A stretch of 57,379 bases of DNA, from assembly GCA_001771285.1 (NCBI GenBank), contig METI01000073.1, forward strand, positions 1 through 57,379, read 5' to 3'. Origin of the DNA: a candidate division NC10 bacterium RIFCSPLOWO2_12_FULL_66_18. GTDB lineage: Bacteria > Methylomirabilota > Methylomirabilia > Methylomirabilales > 2-02-FULL-66-22. Of the stretch, positions 37,938-38,942 are shown piece by piece. Under the pieces are notes generated by a model that made no database searches, was not told the DNA's origin, and worked only from the letters and a program-made list of their open reading frames with translations. The position numbers were made by a program, and so were the translations under genes. The stretch's first letter is position 1, and the number at the start of each line of letters is the position of its first letter.

Positions 37938-38007
37938 GTCGGGGAACGTATTGCAGATTGCAGATTTGACAATCTCCGATCTGCCATCTGAAATCTCAAA
38001 TGGCATT

Positions 38008-38085
38008 GCGCCTGTAGCTCAGCCCGGATAGAGCAACGGCCTCCGGAGCCGTGTGTCGGGTGTTCAAATCACCCCAGGCGCGCCA
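38008..38085 (+). tRNA. tRNA-Arg (CCG)
   Basis: Acceptor gcgcctg/caggcgc, anticodon stem acggc/gccgt with loop ctCCGga, CCA encoded. Confidence 0.9.
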
Positions 38086-38189
38086 GACGATTTGTGATTG
38101 ATGATTTGCGATTGACGATTTGACTGAGGCTGTGATGCTAGGCGGTCCGGGAAATCGAAAATCCTCAATCACCAATCGCAAATGGACAT

Positions 38190-38267
38190 GGTGAGCGTAG
38201 CTCAAATGGTCAGAGCACTGGACTGTGGCTCCAGGGGTTGAGGGTTCGAGTCCCTCCGTTCACCCCA
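38190..38267 (+). tRNA. tRNA-His (GTG)
   Basis: Encoded G-1 opposite discriminator C, anticodon stem ctgga/tccag with loop ctGTGgc, CCA encoded. Confidence 0.9.
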
Positions 38268-38380
38268 CGATGGGGGGTTTTCGATTGGCGATTTGCGATT
38301 GCCGATTGCACAAAGAGTCGAAGCCGGGGCGATTTGGACAAATCGAAAATCGGCAATCCTAAATTGGCAATGAGAAGGGG

Positions 38381-38457
38381 GCGCCCGTAGCTCAGTTGGA
38401 TAGAGCGGCTGGCTTCGAACCAGCAGGTCGGGAGTTCAATCCTCTCCGGGCGCGCCA
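38381..38457 (+). tRNA. tRNA-Arg (TCG)
   Basis: Acceptor gcgcccg/cgggcgc, anticodon stem gctgg/ccagc with loop ctTCGaa, CCA encoded. Confidence 0.9.
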
Positions 38458-38577
38458 CGGACGGCGGTTGGGGATTTTCGATTGGTGATTTCCGATTGGC
38501 GATTGCCTCGGAGCGTGTGCCCTTGCGGCCCGGGAAAATCGAAAATCGCCAATCCTCAATCGACGATGGGTTGAGGG

Positions 38578-38653
38578 GCGCCTGTAGCTCAGTGGAGAGA
38601 GCAACTGCCTTCTAAGCAGTGGGCCGGGCGTTCGAGTCGCCCCAGGCGCACCA
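38578..38653 (+). tRNA. tRNA-Arg (TCT)
   Basis: Acceptor gcgcctg/caggcgc, anticodon stem actgc/gcagt with loop ctTCTaa, CCA encoded. Confidence 0.9.
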
Positions 38654-38762
38654 CGTCATTTTCGATTGGTGATTTGGGATTGTCGATTGGGCCGATTCAG
38701 AAGTTTCCGGGCGGCGGAAAATCGAAAATCATCAATCCTAAATCGTAAATTGGGAAAGGGAT

Positions 38763-38838
38763 GGGCCGCTAGCTCAGTTGGTAGAGCAGCTGACTCTTAA
38801 TCAGCGGGTCGTAGGTTCGAGTCCTACGCGGCCCACCA
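38763..38838 (+). tRNA. tRNA-Lys (CTT)
   Basis: Acceptor gggccgc/gcggccc, anticodon stem gctga/tcagc with loop ctCTTaa, CCA encoded. Confidence 0.9.
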
Positions 38839-38942
38839 CACTCACAAGTGGATTTCCGATTGTGGATTGGTGAATGCCGATTGAACTGCAATGCCGAGCG
38901 GTGAAATCGAAAATCCTCAATCGGCAATCGACGATCACCCTG

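Follow-up and report, generated by a model that had tools for sequence, protein, structure and literature searches.

Heptanucleotide-repeat palindromes occupy the spacers of a seven-gene tRNA array in candidate division NC10

The stretch of DNA that we analyzed (hereafter, the window) comprises 57,379 nt of contig METI01000073.1, forward strand, from a candidate division NC10 bacterium. It carries an array of seven tRNA genes on the + strand, between positions 37861 and 39026, and the subject of our study is the six spacers that separate these genes from one another. The original prediction, which was made from the letters of the DNA alone, had proposed a Pro-Arg-His-Arg-Arg-Lys-Leu array with spacers of 70-120 nt, each a copy of a single AT-rich inverted-repeat hairpin. 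Both ARAGORN and Rfam agree with this description of the array (Table 1) and, at its gathering threshold, Rfam finds only tRNAs, and no other RNA family, between 37861 and 39026. The spacers themselves are built from inverted arrays of a 7-nt unit.

The general plan of a spacer is a run of 3-5 tandem GATTKNN heptamers, which leads into a G+C-rich loop and is followed by a run of inverse NNMAATC heptamers. In spacers 2-6, the GATT cores of the 5′ half are spaced at exactly 7 nt (e.g., at 38089, 38096, 38103, 38110, and 38117), as are the AATC cores of the 3′ half (e.g., at 38153, 38160, 38167, and 38174). Because the repeats make the register of any alignment ambiguous, we relied upon regular expressions and autocorrelation. 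Autocorrelation singles out 7 as the one repeat period that is enriched in the window (66 positions vs. 0 for the other periods among 3-11), and the periods that Tandem Repeats Finder (TRF) reports for the arrays are 7 or 14. The “pentamer-like” units of the original prediction are, therefore, in fact heptamers with a 4-5-nt core, and their profile is G100 A100 T100 T100 K(G64/T33) N N, or KNNGATT when permuted. The window contains 24 matches to GATTNNNGATTNNNGATT, compared with 0 in 100 shuffles, and all 24 are located within spacers of the tRNA array or within the spacer between tRNA-Ile and tRNA-Ala of the ribosomal RNA (rrn) operon. This operon is complete in the window, with both tRNA genes inside its 16S-23S spacer (ARAGORN, Rfam), and its Ile/Ala spacer belongs, as had been surmised, to the same family but lacks the central loop, such that four units abut four inverse units.

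Since the arrays are inverted, each spacer transcript is predicted to fold into an imperfect stem of ~30 bp that fills nearly the whole spacer. A long hairpin fold was obtained for every spacer, with z scores of -1.6 to -5.5 relative to dinucleotide shuffles, and pairing of the arms beyond that expected from composition was thereby confirmed. The idea that the spacers are copies of one hairpin is correct in so far as they represent a single hairpin family; spacer 1, however, is only a short degenerate variant. Similarly, the spacers are relatively AT-rich, with a G+C content of 40-57% compared with ~66% in the window, but not strongly so, as against the “striking” AT-rich islands that had been described.

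Table 1. Positions of the tRNA genes, their spacers, and other heptamer arrays in the window
Feature	Position	Strand	Description
tRNA-Pro(tgg)	37861-37937	+	ARAGORN, Rfam
Spacer 1 (Pro-Arg)	37938-38007	+	70 nt; short degenerate variant with two GATT units; (CAGATTG)x2-3 then NATCTNN units; two short hairpins
tRNA-Arg(ccg)	38008-38085	+	ARAGORN, Rfam
Spacer 2 (Arg-His)	38086-38190	+	105 nt; five GATTKNN (38089-38121), G+C-rich loop, four NNMAATC (38151-38184)
tRNA-His(gtg)	38191-38267	+	ARAGORN, Rfam
Spacer 3 (His-Arg)	38268-38380	+	113 nt; 5′ arm 38278-38308, 3′ arm 38338-38371
tRNA-Arg(tcg)	38381-38457	+	ARAGORN, Rfam
Spacer 4 (Arg-Arg)	38458-38577	+	120 nt; 5′ arm 38472-38505, 3′ arm 38533-38567
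tRNA-Arg(tct)	38578-38653	+	ARAGORN, Rfam
Spacer 5 (Arg-Lys)	38654-38762	+	109 nt; 5′ arm 38658-38689, 3′ arm 38716-38751
tRNA-Lys(ctt)	38763-38838	+	ARAGORN, Rfam
Spacer 6 (Lys-Leu)	38839-38942	+	104 nt; 5′ arm 38851-38883, 3′ arm 38902-38936
tRNA-Leu(tag)	38943-39026	+	ARAGORN, Rfam
rrn tRNA-Ile/tRNA-Ala spacer	30228-30304	+	four GATTKNN directly abutting four NNMAATC; hairpin with 3-nt loop
Short direct array (GCTGACC)x2.4	2147-2166	+	upstream of tRNA-Leu(taa)
Direct array (TTGAACN)x4	4820-4847	+	between TPM-domain gene and lemA
Two arrays, (GAGCCGC)x5.9 and (GAGCGCC)x5.4	7863-7933	+	inside thrS (7342-9396)
Palindrome, (AATGACC)n then (GGTCATT)n	9944-10042	+	3 nt past infC stop codon, upstream of rpmI
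Direct arrays, perfect (AAATTCG)x4.7 then (CCCGACC)x3.3	17664-17722	+	between rny (RNase Y) and ymdB
Degenerate direct AATGACC array	22482-22511	+	TRF
Palindrome, (CGACAAC)n then (GTTGTCG)n	46392-46450	+	between nadC-like gene and AIR-synthase-related gene

Heptamer arrays of at least six unit families are present in the window, and all are intergenic except for the in-frame array in thrS. With several families scattered across the window, arrays of heptamers, often in inverted pairs, are thus a general property of this genome's intergenic DNA, and the GATT unit is the heptamer family that resides in its stable-RNA operons. The two arrays in thrS maintain the reading frame and correspond to a low-complexity insert (…SRPESREPGTASRELRAEAGAPSAERRE…) upstream of the tRNA_SAD domain.

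Based on Pfam matches of the neighboring open reading frames, the tRNA array is preceded by an amidase gene, a GerM-like gene, rph (RNase PH), and rdgB/Ham1, and is directly followed by tig, clpP, clpX, and bamD. The end of rph carries a near-consensus sigma-70-type promoter (TTGACA-17-TAGAAT, 11/12; 37076-37104), at a distance of ~750 nt upstream of the array. Since a similar promoter call is absent directly before tRNA-Pro, co-transcription of the array with rdgB is a possibility. A truncated tRNA-Pro-like copy, consisting of the 5′ part through the anticodon arm, is found at 37757-37830, ~55 nt upstream of tRNA-Pro. We considered whether the spacers might be intrinsic terminators and rejected the idea, as the array contains only weak matches to the consensus (a G+C-rich stem and then a U tract), no more than shuffled sequences do; canonical terminators are present in the window after the 5S gene and after tRNA-Val. 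A CRISPR-like or an integron-like array was likewise rejected, because the repeats are inverted and not direct, and the “cassettes” would be tRNAs whose order is fixed across the phylum.

The same seven tRNA genes, in the same order, were found in many NC10 lineages, down to those whose tig proteins are 46% identical. We denote loci from relatives or from other phyla by L-numbers. The tig protein assigns the window to Methylomirabilota (NC10). In the genome collection, the closest relatives have a tig that is 82-85% identical to that of the window, and the metagenome contig L026 has one that is 99% identical. The relatives' arrays provided a comparison set of 143 distinct spacers, 85 of which contain period-7 arrays (mean folding z -3.4; 79% with z < -2). 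The main stem takes up ~84 of 102 nt, with ~30 bp, and is separated from the upstream tRNA by a median of 5 nt and from the next by 7 nt. The units are drawn from several families, namely GATTKNN, AATGACC, GCGGAAT, GGTTCAK, CTGAGNN (in L015 and L089), and CGACAAC/CGGACAA, which vary by lineage and by spacer. At the position of spacer 4, for example, relatives have an AATGACC or a GCGGAAT hairpin. Some spacers are filled by heptamer arrays in the direct orientation only, and the CGACAAC/CGGACAA family is often such a direct array without an inverse arm. Of the 53 strict period-7 arrays in 424 kb of NC10 loci, 45 are located inside tRNA arrays; the other periods yielded 0-7 arrays each.

The hairpins are not found in every array. 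Five of the six spacers in L005 are short, G+C-rich, and free of repeats, the His-Arg spacer is only 27 nt long in L005, L041, L043, and L050, and the arrays of L008 and L009 contain no heptamers at all. The rrn Ile/Ala spacer is just as variable: 3-4 genomes have a hairpin of GATTG units there, two have one of GCGGAAT units, and four lack heptamers. These comparisons show that the hairpins are dispensable; tRNA maturation does not depend upon them. Two further features of the relatives' loci deserve mention. A conserved motif of ~22 nt (ACGTTGCGGGATCRCCCCGACCA), which is similar to the tRNA-Pro 3′ end and does not occur in the window, follows tRNA-Pro in many relatives, including distant ones (L026 1340-1474; the Pro-Arg spacers of L013, L015, L039, L044, and L059). 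In several relatives (L001 and L004, each at 3500-3880, and many other loci, e.g., L027, L028, L033, and L054), tig is preceded by tRNA-Leu alone, with the 3′ half of a tRNA (Lys-like in L004) just upstream and then unrelated DNA, as though a genomic island had integrated there or the array had been broken up.

Over short times the array is stable. Four contigs from different samples whose tig is identical share one array, which varies among them by 0-1 differences, and nine contigs of the same population have identical copies of the infC-rpmI element. The NCBI assembly GCA_001771245.1 likewise encodes a tig identical to that of the window, and only 1 of 4905 positions around it is different. 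When the window is compared with L026, the flanking DNA is ~98% identical and tig is 99.1% identical, and the differences amount to 1 nt in spacer 2 and 3 nt in spacer 6. The remaining four of the six spacers have been replaced: the aligned identities for spacers 1, 3, 4, and 5 are 57/137, 79/121, 60/127, and 71/117, and they cannot be aligned as orthologues. The GATT hairpin in spacer 4 of the window is an AATGACC hairpin in L026, spacer 5 is of a GCGGATT type, and spacer 3 is a different GATT copy with another loop. Five of the seven tRNA genes are identical between the two, and the exceptions are tRNA-Arg(tct) (74/76) and tRNA-Lys (72/76), a pattern which suggests that a recombination tract was imported.

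Spacers also recur in genomes that are considerably more divergent. Spacer 3 of L026 is identical to its counterpart in L038 at 108 of 113 positions, and spacer 5 of the window matches L038 at 98 of 112, despite the fact that the L038 tig gene is only 79% identical (nucleotide) to that of the window or of L026. Within L042, spacers 3 and 4 are identical at 91 of 102 positions, including the loop, and differ by one clean 7-nt unit, which indicates copying between neighboring spacers of one genome. Orthologous spacers are separated by indels of 7 and ~14 nt. Hairpin and hairpin-free spacers do not have any flanking sequence in common, and we therefore conclude that the whole inter-tRNA segment is replaced, as opposed to an element being inserted into an older spacer. 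The tRNA genes of the array are ≥93% identical to those of the window across these lineages, most of them ≥95%, and these near-invariant flanking genes are the likely homology for spacer exchange. As the original prediction had maintained, simple tandem duplication of a tRNA plus its spacer is an inadequate explanation for the hairpin family.

Heptamer arrays of the same kind extend far beyond NC10. In the genome collection, (GATTKNN)x4 occurs at no fewer than 120 loci (at least 120) in many phyla, where ~17 chance matches are estimated for the collection as a whole. Among the matches listed are Acidobacteriota, Bacteroidota, Cyanobacteria, Chloroflexota, Planctomycetota, Verrucomicrobiota, Desulfobacterota, Xanthomonas/Lysobacter, and others, with few or none in Bacillota, Actinomycetota, and Alphaproteobacteria; 27 of the 120 GATT loci among them are inverted pairs of the NC10 design, and only two have a tRNA gene nearby. 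No protein family recurs beside the GATT arrays in these 120 loci, the maximum being four loci per family. The exact array (AATGACC)x3 is also found at a minimum of 120 loci (L240-L359), compared with an estimate of ~0.3 by chance for the whole collection, and the matches listed are mostly from cyanobacteria, together with Planctomycetota, Bacteroidota, and Verrucomicrobiota. A perfect palindrome of ~60 bp, made of GGATTGS heptamers and with a predicted folding energy of -121 kcal/mol, is located at 3520-3660 of L176 (Fibrella aquatilis, Bacteroidota); its perfection suggests that such palindromes can arise or be renewed recently.

The similarity between the spacers had been offered as an argument for conserved function. 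As stated, this argument is not supported, given that relatives keep the architecture and not the sequence or unit family, that several lineages have short spacers without a hairpin, that four of six spacers are replaced in a strain that is ~98-99% identical, and that like heptamer palindromes are located in the mRNA intergenic regions of the window and, without any link to tRNA, in many phyla.

Our preferred reading, to which we would give a probability of roughly 0.55, is that the spacers are heptanucleotide-repeat DNA palindromes that spread by copying, vary in 7-nt steps, and are exchanged between genomes, probably via the flanking tRNA genes, with a hairpin that is tolerated, possibly useful, and not required. 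The elements behave like a class of DNA repeats and not like an RNA gene of conserved sequence: those of one family are copied between the spacers of one genome, whole 7-nt units are gained and lost, and whole spacers are exchanged between strains or lineages, likely through recombination in the near-invariant tRNA genes on either side. A polycistronic tRNA precursor may tolerate the elements because they take the form of a hairpin. The hairpin may also keep neighboring tRNAs from misfolding together, or may offer an entry site to a double-strand- or structure-dependent endonuclease. Of the candidate functions in the original prediction, it is the “recombination or mobile unit” that best fits the evidence; stems for processing by RNase III/E/Z are a less likely candidate.

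Several observations weigh against such a reading. All 32 GATT clusters in 517 kb of NC10 DNA, which is a biased genome sample drawn from around tRNA, rrn, and infC loci, are within 60 nt of (≤60 nt from) a tRNA gene. The motif is, thus, not uniform in the intergenic DNA of NC10, and the restriction of the GATT family to the surroundings of tRNA genes suggests that its function or its targeting is linked to tRNA, a question that our reading leaves open. In addition, phase-aligned GATT arrays deviate from the consensus at 7-12% of the G, A, T, and T positions vs. 34-44% at positions 5-7, a three- to four-fold effect, although the p-value is inflated because the sequences are not independent. 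The phase-aligned test replaced an earlier one, of sorted per-column variability, which was indistinguishable from its null. The GATT array precedes the AATC array in NC10 spacers without exception (32:0), and does so in 27 of 27 hairpins from diverse phyla among the matches listed. As the order is the same when read from either strand and the stem duplex would be unchanged, hairpin stability cannot explain it. Neutral slippage alone leaves both the strict GATT arm order and the conservation of the core unexplained. Furthermore, spacer 2, which with a z of -5.5 is the best-paired hairpin, is also the one spacer whose orthologues covary: among the nine that can be aligned, both partners have changed in 6 of 22 pairs. 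These nine have a covariation score of 0.199, compared with 0.103 in shuffles, a value reached by 0 of 500 shuffles, and their variable columns are 89% paired in register vs. 55-74% when slid by 7 or 14 nt. As it was RNAalifold that set the register, and as the sequences form two clades, this is only suggestive of selection on pairing for at least spacer 2. Lastly, no copying mechanism was identified.

In NC10, arm order is equally strict for the GCGGAAT (9:0) and GGTTCA (8:0) families. A universal rule can nevertheless be rejected, since the AATGACC order in cyanobacteria (10:1, among the matches listed) is opposite to that in NC10. Because the order is fixed per family and per lineage, descent by copying from founder elements fits better than a universal structural rule. 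We also observed that, when the GATT family is included, 37 of 38 hairpins outside NC10 among the matches listed have the ATTG-containing strand as their 5′ arm, and that AATGACC hairpins in cyanobacteria and Planctomycetota (e.g., L265, L272, L328, and L354) have the (GGTCATT)n arm first.

An alternative explanation is that the spacers are dedicated RNA processing or insulator stems, such that the polycistronic tRNA (and rrn) precursor needs a duplex between its tRNAs, either for an RNase III-type or structure-guided cut or to prevent misfolding, with the sequence family free to vary. This would account for hairpins that fill the spacers and leave short flanks, for the confinement of GATT units to the vicinity of tRNA genes in the sampled NC10 DNA, for the register-specific covariation in spacer 2, and for an architecture that persists to tig proteins of 46% identity in spite of differing units. 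Arrays are, moreover, found on both arms in 72 of the 85 NC10 heptamer spacers, whereas 27 of the 120 GATT arrays listed from other phyla are of hairpin type, and genes for both RNase PH and RNase Y are present in the window. The check for compensatory changes, which the original prediction had called for, is positive in the one orthologous set of spacer 2; overall, it is negative in two tests in which the order of units was permuted within arms. Pairing in the natural order (378) is no better than in permuted orders (380.5 ± 4.5; z -0.57), in a test of low power in which the arms were crudely detected, and the natural order is on average 0.75 kcal/mol worse (+0.75) in folding energy (n = 25). 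Ungapped pairing of the arms is nearly as good after sliding by 7 or 14 nt. The numbers of units on the two arms are uncorrelated (rho 0.15), a result that weighs neither way. In a comparison of G-U against A-C pairs, folding favors the sense over the antisense strand by 4.6 kcal/mol (-4.6; in 69 of 85 spacers), with more G-U pairs in the sense strand; shuffled sequences reproduce the same bias (-4.25), which is thus an effect of composition, so that the comparison gives no RNA-strand-specific signal and in itself argues neither way. When added to the direct-only arrays in some spacers, to the hairpin-free short spacers that serve the same array in several lineages, and to an invariant GATT core that pure structural selection does not predict, the permutation and sliding results lead us to regard dedicated stems as a possible but doubtful explanation.

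If the heptamer arrays were instead the terminal repeats of non-autonomous mobile elements, akin to MITEs (miniature transposable elements with inverted repeats) or to REPINs (doublets of repetitive extragenic palindromic, or REP, sequences), mobilized by a transposase encoded elsewhere and with tRNA spacers as preferred or safe sites, one would expect the fixed arm order about a dyad, the coexistence of several discrete families with unit order conserved within a genome, and the patchy, cross-phylum distribution, as well as occasional perfect copies such as that in Fibrella. A mobile element was also raised as a possibility for the P6b stem of Nostoc (PMC4476775). However, no target-site duplications were seen by eye at the arrays, no transposase adjoins the elements among the window open reading frames that were scanned, and no protein family recurs near arrays in the 120 listed loci. 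The loops differ between otherwise similar copies in the window and, as noted above, spacers are replaced and not inserted into, all of which makes this explanation unlikely. We are equally hesitant about arrays of binding sites for a nucleic acid-binding protein that would read one 4-5-nt core per 7 nt (with a cold-shock, S1, or KH domain, or a duplex- or cruciform-binding protein), and whose paralogues would match the core families. A conserved core with 2-3 free linker positions, a fixed orientation about a dyad, and the same heptamer words in Nostoc, Beggiatoaceae, and NC10 all conform to it, and there are precedents in CspB, which binds as one protein per heptamer and was proposed to do so for TAACTGA repeats (PMC4679880), and in the heptamer-binding partner postulated in Nostoc (bioRxiv 10.1101/2022.06.06.494920). 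Set against these are the AATGACC family, which is conserved uniformly and without any core-specific contrast and has opposite arm orders in cyanobacteria and NC10, and the dispensability of the elements in some lineages; no candidate protein was identified. Rather speculative, albeit a little less so, is the existence of a pan-bacterial system, as opposed to junk, in which a small 7-nt vocabulary (GATTKNN, AATGACC/GACCAAT, NNTGAGT, and (T/C)AACTGA), common to Cyanobacteria, Bacteroidota, Planctomycetota, Acidobacteriota, Beggiatoaceae, and NC10, would be read by a conserved putative sequence-specific factor or copying machinery that imposes the core and the arm orientation. One family in NC10 might then have been co-opted to supply stable-RNA operons with exchangeable cassettes for processing or insulation.

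The seven-tRNA operon is a compact natural experiment, with six spacers, at least five heptamer families, presence or absence by lineage, and swaps between near-identical strains. Some spacer alleles are even common to lineages at genus-level divergence. The consistent GATT arm order, the 4-nt core, and the words that recur in distant phyla could make an old puzzle testable, namely whether a trans-acting factor or a copying mechanism is at work. In practical terms, the heptamer repeats probably fragment metagenome assemblies at tRNA arrays, and they make tRNA spacers unreliable phylogenetic markers.

Three additional features of the window are recorded here. An open reading frame of 137 amino acids with an HHH_3 (ComEA-like) domain (33497-33910, + strand) lies between the 23S (end 33511) and 5S (start 33941) genes, in the same orientation, and a protein gene inside an rrn operon is unusual. 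A 6S RNA gene is located at 15362-15551 (Rfam, 90.9 bits) and is followed, ~100 nt downstream at 15649-15746, by a G+C-rich 34-nt tandem repeat (x2.3). Finally, a G+C-rich imperfect inverted repeat at 5439-5517, with 36-nt arms that are 72% complementary (a purine-rich arm and then a pyrimidine-rich one), sits just upstream of a promoter-like sequence and tRNA-Val.

Several well-known bacterial elements invite comparison with the NC10 spacers. REP sequences, bacterial interspersed mosaic elements (BIMEs), and REPINs are abundant intergenic imperfect palindromes which, like the NC10 elements, are often found inside operons or after stop codons, form inverted doublets in a fixed arrangement, and give rise to hairpins in the transcript. 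Unlike the NC10 elements, REPs have no internal 7-nt periodicity; they have a conserved 5′ tetranucleotide and are tied to REP-associated tyrosine transposases (RAYTs). Helices in the spacers of rRNA operons offer another parallel, as there is a hairpin between tRNA-Ile and tRNA-Ala in cyanobacteria (the V2 helix of the internal transcribed spacer) and long imperfect stems occur in stable-RNA precursors. The ~30-bp length of the NC10 stems would be compatible with an RNase III processing stem. Classical processing stems, however, are made by sequences that bracket a mature RNA, and covariation conserves them, whereas those of NC10 are situated between mature RNAs, consist of repeats, and are dispensable. 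We treat REP/REPIN, MITEs, rRNA processing stems, and the V2 helix as functional analogies only.

Knowledge of heptamer repeats in cyanobacteria dates from about 1990, and the short tandemly repeated repetitive (STRR) sequences of heterocystous cyanobacteria presumably include TTGGTCA (STRR2), the complement of TGACCAA. The NC10 spacers belong to this known heptanucleotide-repeat (STRR-like) class and are not a tRNA-specific invention. Like the STRR sequences and other heptamer simple sequence repeats (SSRs) of bacteria, they have a 7-nt period, are intergenic and often just past a stop codon, and comprise several families per genome. Among the matches listed, heptamer repeats are concentrated in Cyanobacteria, Bacteroidota, Planctomycetota, and similar phyla. 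Unlike the heptamer SSRs described so far, which are mostly direct arrays near start codons or promoters, those of NC10 are mainly inverted pairs, and one family is confined to tRNA and rRNA spacers. Heptamer SSRs are over-represented in bacteria, an excess that has been tentatively ascribed to polymerase slippage, and the GGGAATC repeats of Xanthomonas and Nostoc are found ~28 nt after the upstream open reading frame (PMC4692102). Direct repeats of TAACTGA occur in Beggiatoaceae, cyanobacteria, and Bacteroidetes, where S1, cold-shock proteins (Csp), or CsrA were proposed as binders (PMC4679880). In Nostoc 7120, GAC(C/T)AAT is repeated eight times upstream of recO (bioRxiv 10.1101/2022.06.06.494920), and the GACCAAT/AATGACC word of the window is identical to it.

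The closest described case is the P6b stem-loop in the group I intron of the tRNA-Leu(UAA) gene of Nostoc. This stem is always built on heptamers, either TDNGATT (Class I) or NNTGAGT (Class II), and undergoes unit-sized indels and repeated whole replacement out of step with phylogeny (PMC4476775). The NC10 hairpins differ in that they are located between tRNA genes and in the rrn Ile/Ala spacer, and not in an intron (the tRNA-Leu(taa) gene of the window, at 2219-2305, is 87 nt long and intron-free), and in that they belong to another phylum, with a G+C content of ~66%, in which at least five unit families share one array. The first position of the NC10 unit is K, and not T as in Class I, and G is commoner than T at that position, so the match to Class I is one of the core only and not of the full motif. 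In other respects the two are alike: in both, one arm is made of degenerate repeats of 7 nt and the second arm of the complementary repeats, the core is GATT (with the CTGAG-type spacer of L015 resembling Class II), length varies in steps of 7 or 14 nt, and the whole stem-loop is repeatedly replaced independently of phylogeny, and both sit inside a tRNA transcription unit.

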